From assembly GCA_050300015.1 (NCBI GenBank), contig JBNKWZ010000008.1:125393-189392 (forward strand): a DNA stretch of 64,000 bases, given 5' to 3'. This DNA is from Cellvibrionaceae bacterium (GTDB taxonomy: Bacteria > Pseudomonadota > Gammaproteobacteria > Pseudomonadales > Cellvibrionaceae). The notes under the pieces are model-generated. The model made no database searches. It saw only the letters and a program-made list of their open reading frames with translations, and was not told where the DNA came from. Below are positions 1-26,727 of this stretch, piece by piece. A program made the position numbers and the translations under genes. Each line of letters begins with the position of its first letter. Position 1 is the stretch's first letter.

Positions 1-1372
1 TACTGACCAGTCGGTCCTGCAAAGCCAATAAATCCTTCAGCGCTTCACGCACCAAGTCGATATTGATCGGGCGACCAGTAAAGTGGGCGTTAGCAATCAC
101 CCTTTTTAAGGCGCCTTCAAGCTCACGTACATTTGAACGAATACGCTGTGCAATAAAAAAAGCGGCATCATGTGGTAATTCCATTTTGGCTTGGAATGCC
201 TTTTTCATCAAAATGGCCACTCGCGTTTCTAGCTCCGGGGGTTCAATCGCTACGGTCAAACCCCACCCGAAACGAGATTTAAGACGTTCCTCCAATCCGT
301 TAATCTCTTTAGGATACCGATCACAAGTTAAAATGATTTGTTGCCCACCTTCCAAAAGAGCGTTAAAAGTGTGGAAGAACTCCTCTTGAGAGCGTTCTTT
401 TCCCGCAAAAAACTGTATATCGTCAATCAACAGCGCATCTACCGAACGGTAATAACGTTTAAAGTCGTTAATAGCGTTTAATTGTAAAGCCTTCACCATA
501 TCCGCCACAAAACGCTCAGAGTGAAGATAAACGACTTTTGCATTAGGCTTCCTCTGTAATAGAGCGTTTCCCACCGCATGCATCAAGTGCGTTTTGCCCA
601 GTCCCACCCCACCATAAATAAAAAGTGGGTTGTAGGAGCCTCCAGGGTTTTCAGCCACCTGAGTGGCTGCTGCCAAACCCAATTGGTTGGACTTGCCCTC
701 TACAAAGTTTGAAAACGTAAAATCTGAATTGAGGTAATTTCGGTGGTTTAATCCACCCTCAATATCTTCGCGCGCAATACGGGGCGTACGATAAACATCA
801 CCCATATCGTCAAAACGCTGATGCTTGTATTGACCGTTATTTTCTGAATTGGCTGGGCCCCTCGCCACGTCATTAAAACCTTCGCTCACTATACGTCTGT
901 CTTCATAGTCCGGTAAGCTATAGGTCTCGGCTTCTTGAGCCGCCATTGGGGTATTACGATCGCTGTTGTTATATCCGATTGGTGTTGTCGGCTCAGAGCG
1001 AAACTTTGAGTCCCGATGGTGACGACTGTGGCTGCCGTCAACAACATCGCCGGCCGTATTACTTTGGCTGGCCGATGAGGTATCCCCTCGAGGCTGATGT
1101 GGCTGACCGCTTGTATTCACACGAAAACTGAGTTCCTGGCGGCCGACCACGGCCACCTCTACAGGCTGGTTTCCCACACGTTGTGCAATCTCTTGAATTC
1201 TTTGCAAAAACTTTTCGTTTACCCAGTCCAACACAAAGCGGTTGGGCGCGAGCAAACGCAAGACACTTTGGTCTTCGTCAACTTTTAGCGGACGAATCCA
1301 CGTATTAAATTGCTGCGTCGACAACTCCCCTTGTAGGGTATCCAAGCAACTTTCCCAAACCGAATGAGACAA
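1..1372 (-). CDS. dnaA: Chromosomal replication initiator DnaA (3' end of gene lies outside window start; TTG start near 1372)
   Basis: Minus-strand translation reads [30 protein letters not shown] (DnaA domain I). It continues through Walker [17 protein letters not shown] and [18 protein letters not shown] to [28 protein letters not shown] (domain IV), which runs off the window edge. An in-frame TAG lies two codons upstream of the first TTG. Confidence 0.95.
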
Positions 1373-1754
1373 AAAAGGCAACCTCTATTCGCGCCGTCTA
1401 ACCCTTACTAAAGCCCAATCAGCCTTCGCTCAGACGTACGCGCATCTTATTGTGTGTATTTGAACATTGCTGAGGCAAAAACCACAGCCCCCCAAAGAGC
1501 GCCAGTGTTGTTAACCTGCACTCAATCAATCAGTCCATCAACATACCCAACTCCTTAATACAGAATACCTATATAAAGGAAGGAAGAATTTTGGCGATTG
1601 GCGCCTGCTAAAAACCCGGGGGTTATTTGAAAACTGCACGCAGAAGAACCACGGCTAACAGCGCAATGAAGTTTACAACCTATACAGACTAATATGTTGT
1701 TTTATGCGCCATTATTTTTAACAATATCTGTGGGTAAAACCTCTACGATACGCC

Positions 1755-1763
1755 TTATCCACA
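1755..1763 (+). promoter_or_regulatory. Consensus DnaA box TTATCCACA
   Basis: Exact 9-mer consensus seen in sequence. Confidence 0.7.
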
Positions 1764-1900
1764 GCTCTAAGGTAGTTCTAAATAATTAGAGCTTTTGAGA
1801 TTCCTTTATAATCAAAGGCTTGAATAATTTTTATTGTAGTTTAATTGACTTTCCACACATTATCATCTGTAAGCGCACATAGCAGGTGCAATACACAAAC

Positions 1901-1909
1901 TGTGGATAA
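1901..1909 (-). promoter_or_regulatory. Consensus DnaA box (TGTGGATAA on plus strand)
   Basis: Exact reverse-complement of the 9-mer consensus. Confidence 0.7.
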
Positions 1910-2113
1910 GCCTGTTAATAAACTGGTTACAATATGTTCAAAAGTGAGATTCCACTTCGCGAGGGCCAGTGCTAAGGTATTCGCATCACAATCAACAGCC
2001 TTTGTTTTCCAACGGACTTGATTTTAAGGACCGACTTCTATAAGATCGCGCGTCCAAATTTAGGGCCTGGGTAGCCAGGGTATCGTCAACCGTTCTCACA
2101 TCCTAGGGTCGCT

Positions 2114-2248
2114 ATGAAAAGAACATTCCAACCCAGTAACACATCACGTAAGCGCACTCATGGCTTCCGTGCACGCATGGCCACAAAAAATGGTCGTAAA
2201 ATTTTGGCTCGTCGTCGTGCTAAGGGCCGCAAAGTTCTTTGCGCCTAA
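2114..2248 (+). CDS. rpmH: 50S ribosomal protein L34
   Basis: 44-aa [47 protein letters not shown]. This is the canonical L34 sequence, and it is too short to appear in the ORF track. Confidence 0.95.
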
Positions 2249-2280
2249 AACCAATGACATAACCGCCGAGGTGTTCGGCT

Positions 2281-2718
2281 TTGACTGTTCAACCCAATTT
2301 ACATTGTCAAAGTGACACCACAACCCTCTCTTGCGAGAGGGTTTTCTTTACAAAGCACCAACGCCTCCTTAAACCGAGTGAATTTCAAAACGTCTTTAAC
2401 GACGCGCCTTTTCGTGCCTCCAACCCTCAGATTCTCATCCTTGCTTGCCCCAGCTCTAGTAACACTGCACGCCTTGGGCTCGTGATTGCGAAAAAGCACG
2501 TTAAGCGAGCGGTTGATCGCAACCGAATCAAGCGAGTGGCACGAGAAACCTTTAGGCTCCAACAGCACAAACTGCCACCAATAGATGCTATAGTGCTGGC
2601 CCGTCGCGGGGCACACACACTGTCAACAGAGGAACTGGGGTCAATTTTCAACGGGTTATGGAGACGGGTTCGCAAGCGCGCTCAATCTGTCCTCAATCAA
2701 GAGTCAGTTGAACAATGA
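2281..2718 (+). CDS. rnpA: Ribonuclease P protein component (true start uncertain; probably downstream of the 2324-2350 hairpin)
   Basis: The translation ...[18 protein letters not shown]...[30 protein letters not shown] matches the RnpA RNR motif region. The gene lies immediately after rpmH and overlaps yidD by 4 bp. Confidence 0.8.
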
Positions 2719-2945
2719 CACCTATCCTCAAAGCAGTCATTAAAACCTACCAGTACTTACTCAGTCCTTGGCTAGGCAACCACTGTCGTTTTACCCCCTC
2801 GTGCTCACATTACGCGCTAGAAGCGCTAGACCAACATGGCTCAGCTAAGGGTTCTTGGTTAACTGTGTGTCGACTGTGTAAATGCCACCCTTGGCACACT
2901 GGCGGTTATGACCCCGTACCCGACACAAAACACTGCAAACATTAA
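2715..2945 (+). CDS. yidD: Membrane protein insertion efficiency factor YidD
   Basis: 76 aa with cysteine-rich motifs TPSCSHYA and [13 protein letters not shown]. Canonical position between rnpA and yidC. Confidence 0.88.
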
Positions 2946-2964
2946 ATAATTGGTAACTCTATAA

Positions 2965-4650
2965 ATGAAGATGGATTGGCTACGAACTTCTTTGATAGCA
3001 GCAATTGCTTTAGTCTGCTTCCTATTAATGATCCGCTGGACAAACTTCCAAGAGCAGCGGGTAGAGCTGGTAAACAGTGGGCCGAAGGTTTCTGAAGGTT
3101 CAACGAGTACCCCTTCAAGCCCTTCGATGGCCGTTGAATCCGATAACCCAATGGATTCAACCGATTCAGATATACCGGTGGCAGAGGGTGGTGAAGCAAT
3201 GCCAACCCTCACCACCACAGGTAAAACCATCACAGTTAAAACCGATGTTTTGTCCACCGAAATCAACCTGGTTGGGGGAGACTTTCACTATGTAGGTTTA
3301 CCCACTTATTATGCGAAGTTGAATACGCCTGACACGCCTTTTGAATTGTTGGTGAATGACGCTAACAAAACCTACGCAGCTGAAAGTGGCCTCATCGGTA
3401 AAAACGGTACCGATGCACCAGGTAAACGTCCCCAATTCAAAGCCGAAAAAAATCACTATGAATTACAACCCGGCGAGGAAACCCTCACGGTGGACTTGTT
3501 TTACCAACAAACAGATGCCGTTCGGATTATTAAGCGTTTTAACTTTACCCGAGGTGACCATCTTGTTGATGTGTCTTACATTATCCACAATCAGAGTACT
3601 ACCCCTTGGGAAGGCCAATTATACGGACAAATCAAACGCAACGACTTTAACCCGGTTGCCTCGACTGGGGTAGGTATGAAACCCTTTTTGGGCGCCGCCA
3701 CCACTACAGACGAAGACAATTATAAAAAGTTTTCTTTCGATGACCTTGAAGATGAGAAGGTGAACTTTGAAAAGGCCGGCGGCTGGGTCGCCATGGTTCA
3801 GCATTATTTTATCAGCGCATGGATCCCTAACGCTGAAGACACGAACGAATTCGAATTGTTTCAATCCAAAAAATCAGGCTTGTTTTACTTACGTTTTTTT
3901 AGCCCAAAGTTTGAAGTCGCTGCCGGTAGTGTTGGCGAAAAGCACTTTAGTTTCTACGCAGGCCCCAAAGACATCAAAACACTTGAGACCGTGTCACCTT
4001 ATTTAGATCTTACCGTGGACTACGGCATACTATGGTGGATTGCTAAACCACTGTTTTACGCATTGGATTTAATTCATGGGATTGTGGGTAACTGGGGCAT
4101 TGCGATTATTTTGCTAACCGTCTGTATTAAGGTCTTATTCTTTTATCCATCTGCCGCAAGTTATCGCTCCATGGCCAAGATGCGTAAAGTGCAACCCAAA
4201 ATGGCTGAACTCAAAGAGCGCTGTGGTGACGACCGCCAAAAACTTTCGGCTGAGATGATGAAATTATACCGAACAGAAAAGGTCAACCCCTTAGGTGGTT
4301 GTTTACCGATATTGATACAAATGCCGGTATTTATTTCGCTTTATTGGGTGTTGGGTGAAAGTGTCGATCTTCGTCACGCACCTTTCTTTTTCTGGATTCA
4401 TGATCTGTCGGTGAAGGACCCTCATTTTGTATTACCTCTAATAATGGGCACCACCATGTGGATTCAACAAAAATTAAATCCCACGCCACCCGACCCGATG
4501 CAGGCAAAAGTCATGCAGATGATGCCTGTCTTTTTTACTTTCCTATTTTTAGTGTTTCCAGCAGGTTTGGTACTTTATTGGGTTGTTAATAATACCTTGT
4601 CAATCACCCAGCAATACATCATTACCAAGCAGATTGAAAAAAGCCAATAA
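2965..4650 (+). CDS. yidC: Membrane protein insertase YidC
   Basis: 561 aa with an N-terminal TM helix, a large periplasmic domain and a C-terminal multi-TM Oxa1 core ([20 protein letters not shown]...). Conserved synteny. Confidence 0.95.
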
Positions 4651-6002
4651 TGTACGCAACGAATGAGACCATTGCTGCCATTGCCACAGCACCAGGGCGT
4701 GGCAGCGTGGGTATTGTTCGAATATCCGGCCCTCATACTGCAGCCATCGCACAATTGCTTTTGGGGTTTTCTCCCACACCTCGCCAGGCACACTACACCG
4801 ATTTTTATAATTCCGAAGGGCTTTCCATCGATAAAGGTTTGGCACTCTATTTTAAAGGGCCAAAATCCTTCACTGGAGAGGATGTGTTAGAGCTACAAGG
4901 CCATGGTGGCCCCGTAGTGTTAGATATGCTACTCACCACGGTATTACAACACGGCGCCCGGTTGGCTAAGCCGGGAGAGTTTTCTGAGCGTGCGTTCTTA
5001 AACGACAAGATGGACTTGGCACAAGCCGAGGCCATTGCAGATTTAATTAATGCCTCATCTGAGCAAGCAGCCAAACAGGCCATGGCTTCGTTACAAGGCG
5101 CTTTCTCCCAAAAAATTGATGCCTTACTACAACAGTTAATTCAGTTACGGATGTATGTTGAATCTGCCATTGATTTCCCCGAAGAAGAAATTGATTTTTT
5201 ATCGGACCAAAACATTCACCAAACCTTGCAACAAGTGATTGAGGCAGCACAATCGGTTTTGTCACAGGCCAAGCAAGGTAGCCTGATTAGGGACGGCATG
5301 AAGGTGGTGATTGCAGGACGCCCCAACGCTGGAAAATCCAGTTTATTAAATGCTTTATCTGACAAAAATGTTGCCATTGTCACGGACATTGCAGGCACCA
5401 CACGTGATGTTCTACGCGAACACATTCATATCGATGGTATGCCGTTACACATTGTGGATACCGCAGGTTTACGTGACAGCTCTGATCGGGTGGAAAGCAT
5501 TGGCATTGAGCGCGCATGGGAAGAAATCCACAAGGCAGACCGCATATTACTTATACTCGACAGCACGGATCCAACACAACTGAACGCACAATCACACTGG
5601 CCTGAGTTCTTTAACCACCCAGAACTCGTTCAAAAACTGACGCTGCTCTATAACAAGGTCGACATCCACCCTGTCGAACAAAGCCCCTCTGACGCGGCAA
5701 TCGCCATCAGCGCAAAAACGGGCCAAGGCCTGGACACCCTAAAACACCACCTAAAAGACGTTATGGGCTTTGCCACCACCACAGAAGGTGGATTCAGTGC
5801 CAGAAGACGCCACCTGAGTGCCATACAAACGGCCTTGCGATGCTTAGAGGATGGGCACACGCAACTGGCGGATCACCAAGCAGGTGAATTATTGGCAGAA
5901 GATCTACGAGCTGCTCAAAATGCTCTGAGCGAAGTCACCGGTGCGTTCACACCCGACGATTTACTGGGTGAAATCTTCTCCAGCTTTTGTATTGGCAAAT
6001 AA
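4650..6002 (+). CDS. mnmE: tRNA modification GTPase MnmE (TrmE)
   Basis: 450 aa with an N-terminal [21 protein letters not shown]-domain motifs [14 protein letters not shown] and DTAGLR, and C-terminal CIGK. Confidence 0.95.
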
Positions 6003-6160
6003 CACCACATTCTTCTCATTTCCTACTGCGTTACCAACAAGTCAAGCCTAGACCAACCCCCTCCACCAAAACACCTCTATTACACACTTACTCACACATT
6101 GCAGGCAACTTACCCACACTCACCCCACACCCTTACCAACACCCATCACAAAACGCCAAG

Positions 6161-6169
6161 TTATCCACA
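6161..6169 (+). promoter_or_regulatory. Consensus DnaA box TTATCCACA inside a G-depleted non-coding tract (second box CTATCCACA at 6268-6276)
   Basis: Exact consensus 9-mer. One-mismatch copy 107 bp downstream. Confidence 0.5.
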
Positions 6170-6581
6170 CTTTTCAACAAGCTAACAACAAACTGCACAC
6201 AAGCTTTTACCTGTCTGTGCAAAACCCCTAACTTAACAACTGGACAAACTCTGTGTAGCCATAGAAGCTATCCACAATAATATTGATTGTTTTTTGTACT
6301 GCTTAATAACCCCCGTATTCATACACACCTCATACGCAATTACACAGCGCAAACAAAGCCCCAGTACATAAGTTTTTAGGCCAATAACACTTTGATTTAT
6401 ATACATTTTTTGGGATTACGCACAGATAGCGATTGAGACTATAGATTCAATATCTTTAAAACCTTTACAAATAAACACTATTTTCTTACATACCAAATGC
6501 TTTATTTTTAACTGAGAAAATTGATTTAAACTGATTAAAAAATCAACTAAACTAAGCCCATTCTCGGATAAAGGAAAAACC

Positions 6582-7145
6582 GTGCAGCAATTTTTTATTT
6601 CACAGGGACTTGCAGAGTGCATCCCTCAAGCAGTACAACCTGCACCTTCTCTCGCTACCGAAGTGCTGACTTGGTATGGCCATGTGGTTCCCACCAGTAG
6701 CGGTCAGTTTTTTGTGTTTATGGAGCACAGCACTCGATATTGCCTTGTCGTTCATGAAGACAACGTACCCGACCAATTTGAGCAAACCCAAATTGGCCGA
6801 ATGATTCAGTCATTTCTTACTCAATCCGTTATTGAGCTCACTGGCGTTAATGACAAAATTGGTAAACGAATCAGTGTATTGATGGATGAAATGTGCCAAA
6901 CTTCTCAGGTCAACGTGGGCTTGGATTACGCCATCAGCGCTGATTTATTCGATGTGGCTTGCCAGTTACAAATTGTGATTGAAGATTTGGGCAGTTATTC
7001 AGCAGAGACTTTAAGCGAGGTGAATCTCGCTTATCATTTGAACCAAAATTCTGAGCACGGGGCAGTAGCAGGTAGCACCCCACTTGATCGCTTTAAAAAA
7101 CTATGGGTTCAAAAACTGGGCCTAAATGTGGCGGCCAGTCACTGA
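6582..7145 (+). CDS. Hypothetical protein (187 aa) occupying the mnmE-mnmG junction
   Basis: GTG start 6 nt after a good Shine-Dalgarno AAGGA. No TM segments and no motif I recognise. Uninterrupted ORF flanked by non-coding sequence. Confidence 0.55.
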   Translation: MQQFFISQGLAECIPQAVQPAPSLATEVLTWYGHVVPTSSGQFFVFMEHSTRYCLVVHEDNVPDQFEQTQIGRMIQSFLTQSVIELTGVNDKIGKRISVLMDEMCQTSQVNVGLDYAISADLFDVACQLQIVIEDLGSYSAETLSEVNLAYHLNQNSEHGAVAGSTPLDRFKKLWVQKLGLNVAASH

Positions 7146-7177
7146 GCGACCCAACCTCCAAAAATGGCGATTACTTT

Positions 7178-7206
7178 TTGATCGCCTATGCAAAACCTTC
7201 TATAAT
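7178..7206 (+). promoter_or_regulatory. Sigma70-like promoter for mnmG: -35 TTGATC, 17-bp spacer, -10 TATAAT
   Basis: TTGATC at 7178-7183 and TATAAT at 7201-7206, 36 bp upstream of the mnmG ATG. A GATC site overlaps the -35. Confidence 0.5.
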
Positions 7207-7241
7207 CGCCCGGCTTTTCTCTCTCGAACACGAGCGTCACT

Positions 7242-9131
7242 ATGATTTACCCAAAAACCTTTGATGTAATTGTGATTGGTGGTGGACACGCCGGCACAGA
7301 AGCTTGTTTGGCTTCCGCACGCATGGGCTGTAAAACCCTTTTGCTGACTCACAACATTGAAACCTTGGGCCAAATGAGCTGTAATCCTGCCATTGGCGGC
7401 ATTGGCAAAAGTCATTTGGTCAAAGAAATTGACGCTTTGGGTGGTGCCATGGCCAAAGCCACCGATCGCGGCGGCATTCAATTTAGGGTACTCAATAGTC
7501 GTAAGGGACCTGCCGTTAGGGCCACACGCGCTCAGGCAGACCGCGTGCTGTACAAAGCTGCCGTGCGTGAGATATTAGAAAATCAAGAAAATCTGCAGAT
7601 ATTCCAGCAAGCGGTGGATGACCTTATTGTGGAGGGTGACACTGTACGAGGGGTTGTAACCCAAATGGGGCTGAAATTTTTTGCGCCCTGTGTGGTGCTT
7701 ACCACCGGTACTTTTTTGGGCGGCCGTATTCATATTGGCTTAGAGAATTACTCAGGTGGTCGTGCGGGTGACCCGCCTTCCATAGCGTTGGCGGATCGTT
7801 TGCGGGAGTTACCCTTGCGCGTGGGGCGTTTAAAAACAGGTACGCCGCCCAGAATCGATGCGCGTTCGGTAGATTTCACCAAGGTGCAAGAACAATGGGG
7901 CGACGCCCCGTTGCCGGTGATGAGTTACATGGGGCAAGTGGAAGACCACCCCAAACAAGTGTGCTGTTGGATTACCCACACTAACACCCAAACTCACGAC
8001 ATTATCATGCAGGGGTTGGACCGCTCGCCAATGTATACCGGGGTGATCGAGGGCGTGGGGCCTCGCTATTGCCCTTCAATTGAGGACAAAGTGCACCGCT
8101 TTGCCGACAAAGACAGCCACCAAATTTTTATTGAGCCTGAAGGACTGAATACCCACGAGCTCTACCCCAATGGCATATCTACCAGTCTGCCTTTTGATGT
8201 GCAATTACAACTGGTGCATTCCATCAATGGGTTCGAAAATGCGCACATCGTGCGCCCCGGCTACGCCATTGAGTATGACTATTTCAACCCGCAAGATTTG
8301 CAATACAGCTTTGAAACCAAGCACATTCAAGGCCTGTATTTTGCCGGACAAATTAATGGCACCACTGGCTATGAAGAAGCCGGCGCACAAGGCTTATTGG
8401 CGGGCTTAAATGCTGGGTTAAAATCACAAGGCAAACCCCCTTGGTGCCCCACCAGAGACCAAGCTTACATTGGTGTGTTGGCTGACGATTTGATTACCAT
8501 GGGCACCCGCGAACCCTATCGTATGTTTACCAGCCGTGCCGAATATCGACTATTGTTGCGCGAAGACAACGCTGATTTGCGCCTCACTGAGCAGGGTAGA
8601 AACCTGGGTTTGGTGGATGACGCCCGCTGGCAGGCCTTCAGTGAAAAACGTGAGAGCATTGAACGCGAAACAGAGCGTCTGCGAACCACCTGGATTCAAG
8701 CGGGTAGCCCGGAGGCGAATACGTTGGCGGCCAAATTAAAATCGCCCTTGACCCGTGAATATTGTCTGCTGGATCTACTCAAGCGACCAGAACTCAACTA
8801 TCAAGACATTGGCAACATTAAAGGTGTGGCCCTGCTGGAACCTCAAGCGGCTGAGCAAGTAGAAATTGGTGCGAAATATTCGGGCTATATTACTCGCCAA
8901 CAAGATGAAATAGACCGTCTGCGGGCCAGTGAAAACATGGCTATTCCACCGGAGTTTGATTTCTCAGTGGTGGATGGGCTCTCCAATGAGGTCAAACAAA
9001 AATTGGCAGAGGCAAAACCTGCCACATTGGCGCGCGCATCACGCGTACCGGGTGTTACCCCAGCCGCTGTGTCACTGTTGCTGATCACCTTGAAAAAGCG
9101 TGGTTTGGTCAAAAAAGCTGCGGTTCATTGA
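7242..9131 (+). CDS. mnmG: tRNA uridine 5-carboxymethylaminomethyl modification enzyme MnmG (GidA)
   Basis: 629 aa with FAD-binding N-terminus [14 protein letters not shown] and [23 protein letters not shown]. Confidence 0.97.
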
Positions 9132-9783: not shown

Positions 9784-10590
9784 GTGGCGCAAATATACGC
9801 AATAACCAACCAAAAAGGTGGTGTGGGTAAAACCACCACTACCGTGAACCTTGCGGCGTGCCTAGCCGCCACGAAAAAGCGCGTGTTGTTGGTTGATGTG
9901 GACCCACAGGGAAACGCCACCATGGGCAGTGGTATCAATAAGATGGATTTGGACTACAGCGTTTATGACGTGTTGATGGGCGTTATGGATGTGAATTCCG
10001 CATTGGTGAATTCGGTCGATGCCGGCTATCAAGTACTGGGGGCGAATGCAGATCTCACTGCAGCGGAAGTGCAGCTACTGGAAGAGGAAGGCAAAGAGCA
10101 TCGTTTGGCGAATGCATTGTCGTCCATCGCCGCGCAATATGACTATATATTAATTGATTGCCCACCATCACTGAATATGCTTACCGTTAATGCCTTGGTG
10201 GCTTGTGACGGTGTGATCATTCCTATGCAGTGTGAATACTACGCGCTGGAGGGGCTGTCTGCACTGATGGACACTATTAGTACCATTCAACAAGCGGTCA
10301 ACCCAAAACTGCATGTGGAAGGGTTACTTAGAACCATGTACGACCCCAGAATGAGTTTGACTGGAGAGGTCTCCGCGCAGTTAATTCAACATTTTGGGGA
10401 TAAGGTTTATCGCACGTGTATTCCTCGCAATGTGCGTTTGGCGGAAGCCCCAAGTTTTGGCCAGCCCGTCATCATCTATGATAAACACTCTAAAGGCGCC
10501 TTAGCTTATTTGGCACTTGCCGGCGAAATTATTCGACGCAATGAAGCCAGTAATGCGCCTCCCGCAGCCATGATGGCCCCGACTCAATAA
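9784..10590 (+). CDS. parA: Chromosome partitioning ATPase ParA (Soj)
   Basis: 268 aa with deviant Walker A KGGVGKTTT and VDVDPQGN. Adjacent to parB. Confidence 0.92.
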   Translation: MAQIYAITNQKGGVGKTTTTVNLAACLAATKKRVLLVDVDPQGNATMGSGINKMDLDYSVYDVLMGVMDVNSALVNSVDAGYQVLGANADLTAAEVQLLEEEGKEHRLANALSSIAAQYDYILIDCPPSLNMLTVNALVACDGVIIPMQCEYYALEGLSALMDTISTIQQAVNPKLHVEGLLRTMYDPRMSLTGEVSAQLIQHFGDKVYRTCIPRNVRLAEAPSFGQPVIIYDKHSKGALAYLALAGEIIRRNEASNAPPAAMMAPTQ

Positions 10591-10605
10591 TAACGATGAA
10601 CTCTC

Positions 10606-11520
10606 ATGACCAAACCTAAACGAAAAGGCCTGGGGCGCGGATTGGATGCCCTGTTAAGTACAAATTCTAGTCTTAATGCACCTCAAGGTGCTAATCACGC
10701 TGATGCCTCCTCACTTGACACCAAACCTAAAGATGGGATTTTGGCCGATTTGCCCATAGAGTTTTTGCAACGAGGAAAGTACCAGCCGAGAACCGATATG
10801 CAACAGGAATCCCTACAAGAGTTGGCGGATTCCATTAAAGCCCAAGGGGTGATGCAGCCGATTGTCGTGAGGCCGATCGGTGATCAAAAATACGAAATCA
10901 TTGCCGGTGAACGCCGTTGGCGAGCGAGCCAGTTGGCGGGACTTGATAAAATTCCTGCGGTGATTCGCGATGTGCCCGATGAGGCTGCCATTGCAATGGC
11001 GTTGATTGAAAATATTCAGCGTGAAGACCTGAATCCGGTTGAAGAGGCAGTGGCTTTAAAACGCTTACAGGAAGAATTTGAACTCACGCATCAGGAAGTG
11101 GCCACCGCTGTGGGTAAATCGCGTACTGCCGTGTCAAACACTTTACGCTTGTTAAATTTGTGCGCAGAAGTTCGCACCTTACTTGAGCATGGCGATATTG
11201 AAATGGGGCATGCACGGTCACTGTTAACTTTAGAGACGCAAGCCCAAAAATATTTGGCGAACACCGTTGTGGCCAAATCCCTATCAGTCCGTCAGACCGA
11301 GGCCTTGGTACGAAAATATCAAGCAGAAGAAAATAAACCCAAGCAAGCGCCGGTAAAAGAAAACGCCGATATCACCAAATTACAGGATGCCCTCTCAGAT
11401 AAAATTGGCGTACCCGTGATGGTGCAGCATTCTGCAAAGGGGTCGGGCAAGTTGGTTTTGAAATACAGTAACCTCGACGAGTTGGATGGTATTTTAAACC
11501 ACATGGGTTATGAGGCTTAA
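10606..11520 (+). CDS. parB: Chromosome partitioning protein ParB (Spo0J)
   Basis: 304 aa with ParB box IIAGERRWRAS and a helix-turn-helix region. Confidence 0.92.
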   Translation: MTKPKRKGLGRGLDALLSTNSSLNAPQGANHADASSLDTKPKDGILADLPIEFLQRGKYQPRTDMQQESLQELADSIKAQGVMQPIVVRPIGDQKYEIIAGERRWRASQLAGLDKIPAVIRDVPDEAAIAMALIENIQREDLNPVEEAVALKRLQEEFELTHQEVATAVGKSRTAVSNTLRLLNLCAEVRTLLEHGDIEMGHARSLLTLETQAQKYLANTVVAKSLSVRQTEALVRKYQAEENKPKQAPVKENADITKLQDALSDKIGVPVMVQHSAKGSGKLVLKYSNLDELDGILNHMGYEA

Positions 11521-11753: not shown

Positions 11754-12557
11754 CTAAAAGTCTTTGCTAATTTGTAAACCAATGGAATAGGTTTCTAATT
11801 CTGTGTGCGGATGAAAAAACACGGCATCCAGTGTTTGACCATTGCGTGCTAGCCATACTGGGCGGCTTTGTTCAATTTCAGTAAATTCATAAATCAAATT
11901 CAAACCCATCATCCAGTCGTAGGGAAGTCTTTTCCCGATATAGAGATGACTCATTAGTGTGTAGTCCATACCTAGGTGAACATCTGAATCATCATAGACC
12001 TCTTCAAAGTCTACGGTCATATGAGATCGAAATGCCATCTTGGCGTTGAATTCAAAATCCACGCGAAATTGGTCGGTGTGAATGATGACTTGTTTGAACC
12101 CTACAAACCCTTGTCGTTGGTCTAAGTATTCATTCAGAGTACCACTCAGGTTATTTGCGCCAATATAGCGGTCTCGAGTATTCGCTTGATACCCTAAATA
12201 CACCACCGTGGTGACAAAGGATTTTCCAAAGATGTAATGGTCACTTTCCAGCTTATAGAAAGTTTGGGTTTTTATGGGTTGGCCTAATTGAGAATAACCT
12301 AGGTAGTCGACTTGATCGTTACCGGTATAATGCCCGTATTCAAAATAGTACTGATTTTGTTTTTGATACCCAATACTAAACCCCATAGTGGGGATGATGC
12401 CGGATTCTTCGTTAATTGCGAAGCCTTCATTCCACTCCACAAAGTTCACATAGTTTAATTGATTGTTTAATTCCAAAAATAATCCGTCGTACGCTTGCGC
12501 GTATGTGGACCAAGCTAAAAAAAATATAAGCAGTATATAGGCTAAAGTCATCAACAC
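11754..12557 (-). CDS. Putative outer-membrane beta-barrel protein (MipA/OmpV-like)
   Basis: 267 aa with a signal peptide (LLIFFLAWSTYAQA), alternating aromatic beta-strand pattern and C-terminal Phe. AT-rich composition relative to neighbours. Confidence 0.55.
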   Translation of the reverse strand: MLMTLAYILLIFFLAWSTYAQAYDGLFLELNNQLNYVNFVEWNEGFAINEESGIIPTMGFSIGYQKQNQYYFEYGHYTGNDQVDYLGYSQLGQPIKTQTFYKLESDHYIFGKSFVTTVVYLGYQANTRDRYIGANNLSGTLNEYLDQRQGFVGFKQVIIHTDQFRVDFEFNAKMAFRSHMTVDFEEVYDDSDVHLGMDYTLMSHLYIGKRLPYDWMMGLNLIYEFTEIEQSRPVWLARNGQTLDAVFFHPHTELETYSIGLQISKDF

Positions 12558-12588
12558 ACCAAACCTATTTCAAGAACCTGTGCGGCAC

Positions 12589-13614
12589 TTACAAAGCATC
12601 TACTGACAATTGACGTAGTGCCAAGTCGTACCACGTAGTGTACTGAACTTCATCAATAATATTATCTGCGCCATAATCCAAAAGTAGTTTGACGCTAGTG
12701 CCATCCAAAATATCAATAATCAAATTATCTGAACCACCATTGACTTTGATTACGCCAGAAACGGGTACGGAATAACCCACGCCCTGTAGAGGTTTGAGTG
12801 TTTCATACTCGATTAAGGTATCATTAAGAGTGAAGTCCACAAACTTTGAAACCATGTTGATTTGGTATTCCCCGGTTTGTGAATTGACCCACTTATGGGA
12901 TTGGAACTCGAGTGTTTGATAGGAAGTATCAGCTGCGTAATAAAGATCCTGTGCATAAATATCGGTATAAATGGTAATGCCATCTTGACTTTCCACTTGA
13001 TAATTCAATTGGCCGTTAATAACAAAAGGCAAAAAACCACTAAATGTGATGGCGAGTTGATTGACCTTAACTTGGCTGGTTATATTGTAGTTTTGCATGG
13101 TAAGCAACTGGTTTAACGCGGCATTAAACTCAATATCTAAAACGCCGTTGAGCGCCATATACCCTTGATTGCAATGACTGAATGAGGTGTTAAACGTCAT
13201 AGCCAAGGTTTCGTCAAAATTGATTTGAATGTTTTGGCCAGTACTGGTTAAGGAGGCCGCTACACCTACGTCACCATCATATAAACATTTAACGGGTAGC
13301 ATGGTGATCACCACGCCGGTGGCCATATCTACAATTTGTTGGTTTTGCTCGCGTATAATCGCTACGTTGGTATCCACTGCGGTAGTGCTAAAGTCGCTTA
13401 ACAAAACAGCCTTTAATGTGCTGCTAGCAACAGCATTGAAGTTTTCGCTGTTAAGTGAAATGGGCGATAAATTTTTACTGTTGGTTTTGTTGTAAACTTG
13501 TGTAATAGGTGTGGAGGTTGAGGCCACCTTTTTGGGCGCGCTCTGCTCACAAGCGCCAAGCAATACGATGTATGTGACGATAAACCCATAATGGATTAGC
13601 TGCGTAATACTCAT
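12589..13614 (-). CDS. Putative lipoprotein, N/Q/T/S-rich
   Basis: Start ATG at 13614 is preceded by GGAGAAAGG. Lipobox LLGAC, then a low-complexity polar beta-rich sequence. The track ORF extends to 13734, but the internal Met with an RBS is preferred. Confidence 0.6.
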   Translation of the reverse strand: MSITQLIHYGFIVTYIVLLGACEQSAPKKVASTSTPITQVYNKTNSKNLSPISLNSENFNAVASSTLKAVLLSDFSTTAVDTNVAIIREQNQQIVDMATGVVITMLPVKCLYDGDVGVAASLTSTGQNIQINFDETLAMTFNTSFSHCNQGYMALNGVLDIEFNAALNQLLTMQNYNITSQVKVNQLAITFSGFLPFVINGQLNYQVESQDGITIYTDIYAQDLYYAADTSYQTLEFQSHKWVNSQTGEYQINMVSKFVDFTLNDTLIEYETLKPLQGVGYSVPVSGVIKVNGGSDNLIIDILDGTSVKLLLDYGADNIIDEVQYTTWYDLALRQLSVDAL

Positions 13615-14520
13615 AACCTTTCTCCGATTCCTAACAACCTGGTGGTTTGTTAAGGCGCTATTTATCATTTTTATAATAGTGTTGTCGCTATATTCGAATA
13701 CAGCTTTTTGCCCTGAAGTGTTTAACTTTTGCAACGAAGTTAATGATCGATTGTTTGCCGTAATATTGATTGATCAGGCACACTCAACCCGCCCTATTTG
13801 CTGGCAGGCTTGCGCCTGAAGAGCAATGGGAGTACAAAAGACTTTTATCCTTTGGCCCAAAGCCGGGCTCAGACTGCTATTTAAGATGCATTGTTATAGG
13901 CTGGTGAAAGGACGCCAATGTGTAATATTTTGTGTATTGGGTATCGGCTTTCCGTCCAACTTGACTAAGACTGTTAAAGCGAGGATGGGTCAAAAAAGCC
14001 CAACCTGCCCTGCGGTGGTTTGTCAAATGAAACTGGATAACTTCAGTATAGAAAGCCATTGAAAAGAAAACCGTGTAAAGGTCACTGTTCGTCGGATTGT
14101 GTGGCACGAAAATCAACCCAAAAGGGGCCAACTCGTGAAATTGTGACTTAGGTATAAATTGTGAGTTATACGAAAGACCCATCATACAAAAGCCTTATAT
14201 CGAGAAGAATCCTATCTAAGCGAGTTACACCACAATTCCACCAAATGGCATTTGGTTAAATATTAACCAATATGCAATCCATCGTCAGTGGTTGAACCCT
14301 GAGCACTTTAAACCTATAATCGGCCTCGCCCTCCCACTGGGAATAAGATCATCTATTAAGGGCGCATTGAGTGTTGGAATTTTGACAGGTCTATTGGGGT
14401 TACCTCCTACCTGGAATGTCAGGCTGATACCGAGCCACTTTGATTTAGGGTTTGATGACGACTTCGCGGATGTTTTTATGATGACGCGAGAATCAGCCTT
14501 GCTCAATCTATGGTAATGGT

Positions 14521-25944: not shown

Positions 25945-26727
25945 ATGGCAGACGCCCGTGTGGATAAACTGTTGTGTGACCAGGGCCTGGCCGCATCACG
26001 GGCGAAAGCGCAAACATTAATTGAAGCCGGCGCCGTTCGGTATGCTAGTGCGGGCGCGTGGCTAACCATTACCAAGGCCTCACAAAAGGTGCCTGCAGAC
26101 AGTCAGTTTCAAATTGACCCCATTCACGTACTTCAATATGTGTCGCGTGCGGGGCTTAAATTGGAAGCGGGGCTCAATTGGCTGGTACAACACGCGCATA
26201 TTGACAATCGAAAATTGAAGCATTGGGTAACTTTAGATGTGGGCCAATCCACCGGTGGTTTTACGGATTGTCTTTTGCAGCACGGCGTGAACAAAGTGGT
26301 GGGCATTGATGTCGGCCATGCACAATTGGATAAAGCCTTGCAGCATCACCCCGCCGTGATAGCCCTTGAAGGCATTAATGCAAAAGAATTACCGGTAGAA
26401 AAACTATTGGCATTCGCGCCCGGCGGATTTGATTGTATTGTGATGGACGTATCTTTTATTTCTCAAACCAAAATTTTGCCAAACTTACCTGCGCTTGCCA
26501 AAACGGGCAGTTGGTTAGTGTCCTTAGTCAAACCCCAATTTGAAGTGGGGCGTAAGGCTGTAGGTAAAAACGGGATCGTTAAAAATACCACCGCCATTAC
26601 CCAAGCCATTCAAAACGTTGAGGTCTGCGCAACAATGAGCGGATTCGATATCAAAACCACGCTCGAGAGTCCTATTCTTGGCGGGGATGGCAACCAAGAG
26701 TACTTGATCATTGCACAAATGCGTTGA
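25945..26727 (+). CDS. tlyA: TlyA-family rRNA 2'-O-methyltransferase (hemolysin A homolog)
   Basis: S4-like N-terminus. YVSRAGLKLE and DVGQSTGGFTDCLLQHG motifs of FtsJ-like TlyA. Confidence 0.85.
   Translation: MADARVDKLLCDQGLAASRAKAQTLIEAGAVRYASAGAWLTITKASQKVPADSQFQIDPIHVLQYVSRAGLKLEAGLNWLVQHAHIDNRKLKHWVTLDVGQSTGGFTDCLLQHGVNKVVGIDVGHAQLDKALQHHPAVIALEGINAKELPVEKLLAFAPGGFDCIVMDVSFISQTKILPNLPALAKTGSWLVSLVKPQFEVGRKAVGKNGIVKNTTAITQAIQNVEVCATMSGFDIKTTLESPILGGDGNQEYLIIAQMR

Follow-up and report, generated by a model that had tools for sequence, protein, structure and literature searches.

Organisation and composition of the spacer

The subject of this analysis is the non-coding spacer that follows mnmE in a 64,000-nucleotide stretch of the genome of a Cellvibrionaceae bacterium (GenBank assembly GCA_050300015.1, contig JBNKWZ010000008.1, positions 125,393 to 189,392), which we refer to at its full length as the window; our essential contention is that this spacer very probably represents an origin-type region of the oriC2 class. 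The genes from dnaA to parAB follow the Pseudomonas arrangement (Table 1). The original prediction, which drew attention to an unusual base composition, to DnaA boxes and to the ancestral association of the origin with mnmG, placed the feature between mnmE and mnmG; this needs amending, since a real gene of 187 codons (ORF187) intervenes, and the spacer is properly that between mnmE and ORF187.

Judged by its sequences, the organism represents an isolated and deep-branching lineage. The same DNA is represented in a MAG of an uncultured gammaproteobacterium (GCA_050295935.1) and in several Logan assemblies. The best matches to its MnmE recovered from GTDB species representatives and JGI metagenome contigs are at most 64–65% identical, and scans of these genome and metagenome contig collections with MnmE returned nothing above 65%. 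The sole other contig of the lineage (GCA_964351375.1, hereafter L085) was found through ORF187, which is 89% identical between the two. The nearest locus by synteny and protein identity comes from a Cellvibrionaceae metagenome-assembled genome (MAG), hereafter L019, with 78% identity in MnmG and 61% in YidC. These two loci are the basis of most of the comparisons that follow.

The plus strand of the spacer begins with a long region that is poor in G; positions 6003–6280 consist of 34% A, 36% C, 8.3% G (23 of 278 nt) and 21% T, and within 6003–6200 G falls to 6.1% while C reaches 40%. The lowest-G stretch of 270 nt in the window starts at 5971 (5971–6240, 7.4% G), and the next that is not adjacent to it has 14.8%. 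The earlier description of this tract as almost G-free was therefore accurate in that nothing in the window is poorer in G, but overstated with respect to the actual content of 6003–6280. Runs entirely without G extend over 6052–6100 (49 nt), 6106–6154 (49 nt) and 6445–6498 (54 nt). Towards ORF187 the spacer becomes rich in A and T, as had also been pointed out, with a G+C content of 27% over 6400–6581 and of as little as 20% in 100-nt windows.

The depletion of G is explained in part by the DnaA boxes, since the box has no G on the strand that reads TTATCCACA and the array of boxes runs in one direction. The boxes alone are insufficient, however, because after all box-like 9-mers are masked the remainder of 6003–6280 still has only 10% G and 38% C. 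The low G content thus has two sources, a one-directional array of a G-free motif and an additional C-rich tract after the mnmE stop codon. The same composition accounts for an open reading frame (ORF) of 97 codons at 5987–6280, which stays open for want of TAG and TGA stops on a strand so poor in G; a family search with its product gave no hit, and in L085 one 5-nt and two 1-nt indels disrupt the frame, so we rejected a coding function. On the minus strand, four runs of three or more G at 6110–6150 (GGG N9 GGG N3 GGGG N7 GGG) could form a G-quadruplex, a candidate that we dropped when inspection by eye showed that the runs are not kept in L085.

Table 1. Features of the dnaA–parB region in window coordinates, with the distance in bp of each DnaA box from the R1-type box in the window, L085 and L019 (DUE, DNA unwinding element; relaxed consensus, TTWTNCACA)
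Feature	Position	Strand	Distance from R1-type box (window; L085; L019)	Remarks
dnaA	runs off window start	−		gene calls
dnaA–rpmH spacer	1373–2113 (741 bp)			gene calls
oriC1-type core in dnaA–rpmH spacer	1729–1909			perfect boxes at 1755 (+) and 1901 (−), one-mismatch box at 1729 (−); DUE 1761–1880
rpmH, rnpA, yidD, yidC, mnmE	mnmE ends at 6002			in this order, 5' to 3', after the dnaA–rpmH spacer
mnmE–ORF187 spacer	6003–6581 (579 bp)			feature studied
Spacer segments compared with L085	6003–6070; 6071–6180; 6181–6280; 6281–6360; 6361–6440; 6441–6581			identity 47%; 77%; 85%; 75%; 78%; 93%
C-rich, G-poor unstructured tract	6003–6150	+		starts at mnmE stop; 3' half overlaps outer DnaA boxes
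DnaA box TTACTCACA	6088–6096	+		one mismatch to relaxed consensus; TTATTCACA in L085, perfect
DnaA box TTACCCACA	6110–6118	+	−306; −307; −307	identical in L085; aligns with ATATCCACA in L019
Relaxed DnaA box TTACCAACA	6133–6141	+		aligns with CTATCCACA of L019; 23 bp from 6110 box
DnaA box TTATCCACA	6161–6169	+		perfect; TTATTCACA in L085, changed at N position
DnaA box TTTTGCACA	6216–6224	−	−200; −200; −200 (opposite orientation)	perfect to relaxed consensus; identical in L085
DnaA box CTATCCACA	6268–6276	+	−148; −148; −149	identical in L085; aligns with TTATTCACA in L019
DnaA box TCATACACA	6319–6327	+	−97; −97; −98	identical in L085; aligns with TTAACCACA in L019
Further relaxed box TCATACGCA	6330			11 bp after 6319 box; read from sequence
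IHF consensus AATCAAAGTGTTA (WATCARNNNNTTR)	6385–6397	−		exact match; conserved C at 6394, 21 nt from R1-type box
R1-type DnaA box TTACGCACA	6416–6424	+	0; 0; 0	one mismatch; points toward DUE; TTACACACA in L085, changed at N
AT-rich DUE	6440–6560			predicted from duplex destabilisation; most conserved part of spacer
ORF187	6582–7145	+		187 codons
mnmG promoter, sigma-70 type (TTGATC-17 nt-TATAAT)	7178–7206	+		near-consensus; conserved in L085
mnmG	7242–9131	+		followed by rsmG, parA, parB and the atp operon
parA and parB	9784–11520

DnaA boxes, the IHF consensus site and the predicted unwinding element

Both of the DnaA boxes to which the original prediction had pointed, TTATCCACA and CTATCCACA, are present, and a third sequence within one mismatch of TTATCCACA is TTACCCACA. 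Since the motif is itself rich in C and A, its enrichment was assessed against 2000 dinucleotide-preserving shuffles of the spacer itself. Three boxes with at most one mismatch were observed where 0.30 are expected (P = 0.005), and 11 with at most two mismatches where 3.05 are expected, a number that none of the 2000 shuffles reached. Ten of these 11 box-like 9-mers lie on the plus strand. With the relaxed consensus TTWTNCACA, again allowing one mismatch, there are 10 boxes within 6078–6424, nine in the same orientation and one opposed, and those at the outer end are embedded in direct repeats of box plus flank (beginning at 6086, 6108 and 6132) that are spaced by 22–23 bp. The top DnaA-box clusters of the window are confined to this spacer and the dnaA–rpmH spacer. 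Lone perfect TTATCCACA boxes occur at 3581–3589, inside yidC, and at 25959–25967, just past the start of an ORF at 25945–26727.

The last plus-strand box before the AT-rich region has the position of an R1 box, and an exact match to the consensus for integration host factor (IHF) stands upstream of it. There are just 10 exact IHF matches on both strands of the 64 kb, so the placement of this one is unlikely to be due to chance. Its distance from the R1-type box is the same as in the oriC of E. coli, the sequence of which we compared directly, and a spacing of 21 bp is reported to be nearly invariant among gammaproteobacterial origins (Weigel 2025, bioRxiv 10.1101/2025.08.05.668638). In related mnmG-upstream regions, the distance between a plus-strand box and an IHF-like C shows a single sharp peak at exactly the value of the window (a box-to-C distance of 22), which was found in 13 of 83, and every other distance in at most two. 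In L085 the IHF site is kept and differs at an N position only; likewise, the boxes of the window and L085 differ either at the N position or by changes toward the consensus.

Stress-induced duplex destabilisation (SIDD) was calculated with a Benham-type implementation of our own, with copolymeric energetics and at most three open runs. When applied to 2.5 kb around E. coli oriC it recovered the known DUE, placing the strongest internal site at 1116–1196, immediately next to R1 (1202). In the vicinity of the spacer the strongest site spans 6362–6572, with a minimum G(x) of 0.1 kcal/mol at a superhelix density (sigma) of −0.06; G(x) remains between 0.1 and 2 kcal/mol across 6440–6555 for sigma between −0.05 and −0.06, and is lowest within 6500–6550. 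The low-energy stretch begins about 20 bp past the R1-type box, and a weaker site follows the 6268 box (6260–6312). When both origin-like spacers were placed in a joint 9-kb domain, 6383–6578 opened first. This AT-rich element is also where the spacer is most conserved, being 93% identical to L085 (6441–6581), against 69–75% identity at the third codon positions of neighbouring genes, of which 25–31% differ. Since it is conserved beyond third codon positions we regard it as being under purifying selection, which does not apply to the first 70 nt of the spacer.

The spacer contains no GATC site (6003–6581), nor any 13-mer containing GATC, so that control of the Dam/SeqA type is absent. Nor is GATC over-represented in the window (181 found, 249 expected). 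The clustered GATC sites, together with GATC-containing 13-mers in the DUE, that characterise E. coli-type origins of the dam clade are accordingly missing.

When the window is aligned with L085 and L019 by MAFFT, the three sequences are almost free of gaps over 440 columns, with boxes falling on boxes (Table 1); the opposed box of the window aligns with the only nearby perfect box of L019 in minus orientation, and the R1-type box with a perfect TTATCCACA of L019 that stands before the AT-rich element there. All three share the motif CACAGA.A.CG...CAATAT.TTTAAAA at the junction of R1 and DUE, and the window and L019 share a short motif, ATAGTC..AA.CGC, after R1. In L019, the 800 bp upstream of mnmG hold 13 boxes within one mismatch of TTATCCACA, six of them perfect, and 19 by TTWTNCACA, whereas the same scoring gives three (one perfect) and 10 for the spacer of the window. 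The box-rich region of L019 (11637–12411) has nearly a single orientation and includes an AT-rich element at 12189–12265, while its dnaA–rpmH spacer has only two boxes; the origin of L019 is probably the one linked to mnmG.

Similar features extend well beyond this family. Pseudomonas, Stutzerimonas, Marinomonas, Amphritea, Oceanospirillum, Photobacterium, Pseudoalteromonas and many metagenome contigs have clusters of four to eight DnaA boxes at both places, the dnaA–rpmH spacer and the region upstream of mnmG. Where other genes separate mnmE from mnmG, it is mnmG rather than mnmE that the cluster accompanies, as judged from about 100 loci. In 14 relatives inspected in detail, among them Pseudomonas, Marinomonas and Photobacterium, an R1-type box on the plus strand lies 170–270 bp before the mnmG start and is directly followed by the strongest SIDD site. 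In an Oceanicoccus MAG (12092–12507 of its locus) the boxes between mnmE and mnmG are mostly in the opposite orientation, with minus-strand ORFs alongside, and the origin-like region appears to be inverted relative to mnmG.

The dnaA–rpmH spacer, ORF187 and the C-rich tract

The spacer between dnaA and rpmH is the oriC1 counterpart of the mnmG-linked region, about 4.3 kb upstream, and the window thus carries both members of the pair. Its predicted DUE directly follows the perfect box at 1755 and contains an exact IHF consensus on the plus strand (1810–1822), though no IHF consensus stands in this spacer at the canonical 21 nt from an R1-type box. Several observations bear on which of the two is used. 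Over the 67 kb available, the cumulative G−C curve has its minimum at 6827; it falls by 106 over the 3.9 kb from rpmH to mnmE, as it does in the left arm, and rises by 115 over the 4.3 kb from mnmG to parB. When GC skew at third codon positions (GC3 skew) is pooled, the step from yidC and mnmE to mnmG, rsmG and parA amounts to +0.139 for this lineage and to +0.146 for L019; from the count of third-position G+C sites we estimate its standard error at about 0.06. The corresponding step has a mean of −0.007 (range −0.116 to +0.082) across 19 Pseudomonas and Stutzerimonas loci, and of +0.122 (range 0.003 to 0.198) across six dam-clade genomes with an origin adjacent to mnmG. GC3 skew of individual genes was rejected as a discriminator because yidC and mnmE have negative values in Pseudomonas too.

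Between the DUE and the promoter of mnmG, and transcribed away from the former, stands ORF187, which is specific to this lineage. Its differences from L085 are distributed over the three codon positions as 13/10/59, and because they accumulate at third positions we consider it a real gene under purifying selection. The family comprises just two proteins among 5.8 billion, no homologue was found in 80 related loci, and no relative was found among solved structures; a match to DUF6933 is weak and below threshold (E = 1.8e-4, 21.8 bits against a cut-off of 27). Beyond ORF187 the 96-bp spacer before mnmG (7146–7241) differs from L085 at only five positions and holds the mnmG promoter, for which L019 has a similar TTGACC...TATAAT upstream of mnmG. 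A scan of 6003–6581 for sigma-70 promoters returned none at the threshold of the tool. Since ORF187 intervenes, direct action of the box array on the mnmG promoter, of the kind seen in P. aeruginosa, is precluded here; any transcriptional control by the array would have ORF187 as its target.

The C-rich tract that adjoins mnmE has the highest C/G ratios of the 64 kb, about 5–12 in 78-nt windows over 6000–6150 (5.3–12 over 6000–6120) with a peak of 10.7 at 6053, and 14–19 YC dinucleotides per 78-nt window over 6000–6120. No intrinsic (hairpin) terminator was found after mnmE, and the RNA from 6003–6200 is predicted to be unstructured, with a minimum free energy of −5.7 kcal/mol for 198 nt (z = +0.73) and a centroid without pairs. 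Although 6003–6070 is so divergent from L085, the composition has been kept there (39% C, 11% G). This combination of extreme C/G, unstructured RNA, retained composition and no hairpin suggests a Rho-utilisation (rut) site, at which the transcript from rpmH to mnmE would end before reaching the origin; on compositional grounds we consider the case for it evenly balanced. The tract has the properties scored by RhoTermPredict, namely at least 78 untranslated nucleotides with C in excess of G, regularly spaced C and little structure, and it resembles known rut sites in beginning immediately after a stop codon where no hairpin terminator is present and in its C content being well above that of G. 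It differs from them in that its C/G is far above typical values, a ratio of 3 or more being seen in 37 of 4494 validated Rho-terminator predictions in E. coli (RhoTermPredict), and in that it overlaps DnaA boxes.

Elsewhere in the neighbourhood, no parS-like site (TGTTCCACGTGGAACA) was found with up to three mismatches in the 64 kb, despite the presence of parA and parB, and the interval from parB to the atp operon contains a pair of minus-strand genes (11754–13734; L001:15173–17033) for which no Pfam hit is on record.

Probable assignment to the oriC2 class, alternatives and implications

We consider that these features are probably best explained by a chromosomal origin region linked to mnmG, of the class known as oriC2 or oriCII (Weigel 2025; Wawrzyniak et al. 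2026). It is not a new kind of element, but a fresh example of a described one in a poorly sampled gammaproteobacterium. Measured against the attributes by which Weigel (2025) defines the class, the spacer has a predicted DUE, an outwardly transcribed flanking gene, a contiguous array of boxes and the C of an IHF site 21 bp beyond R1; its R1-type box, with one mismatch, is about two helical turns from the DUE (a gap of 20 bp to 6445–6498), and it is intergenic and upstream of mnmG, though with ORF187 inserted, near a GC-skew minimum that was located from 67 kb. The suggestion that this is an origin-like or secondary DnaA-binding region, reflecting an ancestral association of oriC with mnmG, is thus borne out by anatomy and comparison alike.

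In proposing how such a region would operate, we envisage that DnaA occupies the stronger boxes (6161, 6216, 6268, 6110 and 6416) and that DnaA-ATP then loads onto the weaker boxes that face the same way, creating an oligomer that points to the 3' end of the spacer. IHF would bend the DNA at 6385–6397, and the oligomer, anchored at the R1-type box, would open the AT-rich element beside the outwardly transcribed ORF187 and, beyond it, mnmG. Together with the oriC1-type spacer, this would constitute a dual-origin layout as in the Pseudomonadaceae and Halomonadaceae, where both oriC1 and oriC2 are predicted in 88 of 91 and 138 of 163 cases respectively, with a further 23 Halomonadaceae having oriC2 only (Weigel 2025).

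A close precedent is oriC2/oriCII of Pseudomonas aeruginosa, upstream of gidA/mnmG, which is reported to support plasmid replication and, in vitro, the formation of pre-priming complexes (Yee & Smith 1990; Jiang et al. 2006). It shares with the spacer its gene neighbourhood, its cluster of boxes, a plus-strand R1-type box followed by a predicted DUE, outwardly transcribed genes and a second origin-like region about 4–5 kb away at dnaA–rpmH. In Pseudomonas, however, the boxes have mixed orientations (about three plus and three minus) while here nine of 10 point the same way; here, too, ORF187 separates the DUE from the mnmG promoter, the C/G asymmetry is far stronger and the GC3-skew step falls outside the Pseudomonas range. 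The predicted oriC2 of Halomonadaceae, a family in which it varies less than oriC1 (Weigel 2025), is defined by attributes that are largely present here, but we see no twin R1 box and no TGT repeats, the array is about 330 bp long, and the opposed box is 200 bp from R1, as in L019, rather than 108 and 135 bp.

The resemblance to E. coli oriC consists in the position beside mnmG, the order of boxes, IHF site, R1, DUE and mnmG, the spacing of R1 and IHF, and the opposed box (or boxes) about 200 bp from R1, in the manner of R4; the differences are that GATC sites and mioC are absent here and that the array is longer, reaching the 3' end of mnmE. With the origin of L019 the spacer shares colinear boxes, the R1–DUE junction motif, a plus strand that is poor in G over the array and a similar mnmG promoter, although L019 has more and stronger boxes, no ORF187 and a minus-strand gene between mnmE and the array. 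DnaA boxes are also known to cluster outside dnaA-linked origins without constituting origins themselves. The datA locus of E. coli combines a DnaA-box cluster with an IHF site; in common with the clusters of B. subtilis it has no DUE, no R1–DUE geometry and no association with mnmG, whereas all of the elements of an origin are present here. The spacer therefore departs from a datA-like titration or inactivation locus, that is, a cluster with an IHF site that does not unwind and stands outside an origin context, in having a strong DUE with R1 geometry.

Whether the mnmG-linked region is also the origin mainly used in this lineage is less certain. We lean towards this view because the skew minimum and the GC3-skew step are found there, and because its DUE prevails when the two spacers compete for unwinding. 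A further and considerably more speculative proposal is that it is mainly used despite the Pseudomonas-type gene order and an intact dnaA-linked origin 4.3 kb away, and that it has moreover been remodelled in three ways, by a long one-directional array of mostly weak boxes, by an exceptionally C-rich Rho-loading tract and by the placement of ORF187 at the edge of the DUE.

A number of observations weigh against assigning the spacer to an origin, or to the origin in use. In P. aeruginosa, oriCII is reported to be dispensable for replication of the chromosome, oriCI at rpmH–dnaA being sufficient, and to act as a DnaA-regulated promoter region. The dnaA–rpmH spacer of the window has a perfect R1-type box and strong SIDD, and so possesses the core attributes of an origin. 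The skew evidence extends over a few kilobases, and the negative GC3 skews of yidC and mnmE are not peculiar to this lineage. The SIDD profile comes from a simplified calculation rather than from SIST. Perfect TTATCCACA matches are limited to a single box, the R1-type box departs from the consensus at position 4 (T to C), and a number of the boxes have degenerated relative to perfect counterparts in L019; the region could be a down-graded origin. No clear DnaA-trio run was seen, in that 6425–6445 read in three frames has no run of three or more NAN on the relevant strand. With respect to L019, four or more coincidences of position would arise by random placement with P = 0.0025 for a fixed anchor but with P = 0.054 once shifts of the anchor by ±15 bp are allowed; nhmmer searches with the spacer against all 165 loci recovered only its own lineage and failed to detect L019. 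The homology with L019 is based, therefore, on colinear motifs and the MAFFT alignment, and it is the architecture, rather than the sequence, that has been conserved.

The alternative that deserves most attention follows from this Pseudomonas precedent: the spacer might be a DnaA-controlled promoter region and nothing more, in which the array tunes ORF187 and, by read-through, mnmG–rsmG–parAB to the replication cycle without firing as a chromosomal origin. We think this possible but doubtful. In P. aeruginosa DnaA is reported to bind the five oriCII boxes and to regulate the gidAB–parAB operon, with only oriCI required for chromosome replication; the most conserved part of the spacer is directly upstream of ORF187, and the oriC1-type spacer is intact. 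Yet the sigma-70 scan found no promoter in the spacer, mnmG has its own strong promoter beyond ORF187, at least 750 bp from the boxes, and the IHF–R1–DUE spacing, the strongest unwinding signal and the change of skew all indicate an origin. Promoter and origin roles are, in any case, mutually compatible.

The region might instead be a decaying remnant of an ancestral mnmG-linked origin, at most titrating DnaA as datA and the B. subtilis clusters do, with dnaA–rpmH the active site, and it was as a remnant that the original prediction had in part conceived it. The degeneration of boxes that are perfect in L019, which leaves three within one mismatch of TTATCCACA, and the insertion of ORF187 beside the DUE are what decay would produce, and repeated down-grading of one of two origins has been proposed for the Halomonadaceae (Weigel 2025). 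We nonetheless regard it as unlikely. A titration site needs neither a DUE nor R1–IHF geometry, whereas here an R1-type box, a correctly spaced IHF site and a local GC-skew minimum accompany the stretch that, within the first 9 kb, is predicted to unwind most readily; the DUE is the best-preserved part of the spacer, substitutions in boxes respect the consensus, the IHF site has changed at N only, and the skew step is like that of genomes with mnmG-adjacent origins.

Were the asymmetry due solely to a Rho-dependent terminator or 3' untranslated region of mnmE, the box matches would be a by-product of C/A-rich composition, and this could draw on the extreme C/G, on the absence of predicted structure and of an intrinsic terminator, and on the bias that survives the masking of boxes. 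It is very unlikely, given that boxes are enriched over local shuffles preserving dinucleotides, continue for 250 bp past the C-rich part, match the box order of L019 colinearly and occur in association with an IHF site and a DUE. Least probable of all is a structured or regulatory non-coding RNA, such as a small RNA or the structured or G-less leader that the original prediction offered as an alternative. The spacer is long and partly conserved, which speaks for it, but it has no match in Rfam at E ≤ 1 (scan of 1300–7400), it folds no better than shuffled sequences (z = −0.56 for the whole spacer, and the positive value already given for 6003–6200), no promoter or terminator was found within it, and its 5' part is conserved in composition only.

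An origin region of the oriC2 class provides an origin annotation for a gammaproteobacterium that has not been cultured and in which MnmE reaches no more than 65% identity with the best matches recovered from the two collections scanned, and extends the dual-origin layout beyond the Pseudomonadaceae and Halomonadaceae. The comparison with L019, in which box positions, R1–IHF spacing and the R1–DUE junction are kept while box strength drifts, bears on the move of the origin from dnaA to mnmG in gammaproteobacteria. A Rho-loading tract at the border of an origin is in itself a small, testable idea on how origins are shielded from head-on transcription. If the more speculative proposal of a remodelled and mainly used mnmG-linked origin were true, assembly on boxes that are mostly weak may depend more heavily on DnaA-ATP, and the C-rich tract would shield the origin from the convergent rpmH–mnmE transcript. 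In its use of origins the lineage would then stand as a natural intermediate between the Pseudomonas and E. coli types, with two closely spaced origins and a division of labour between them.

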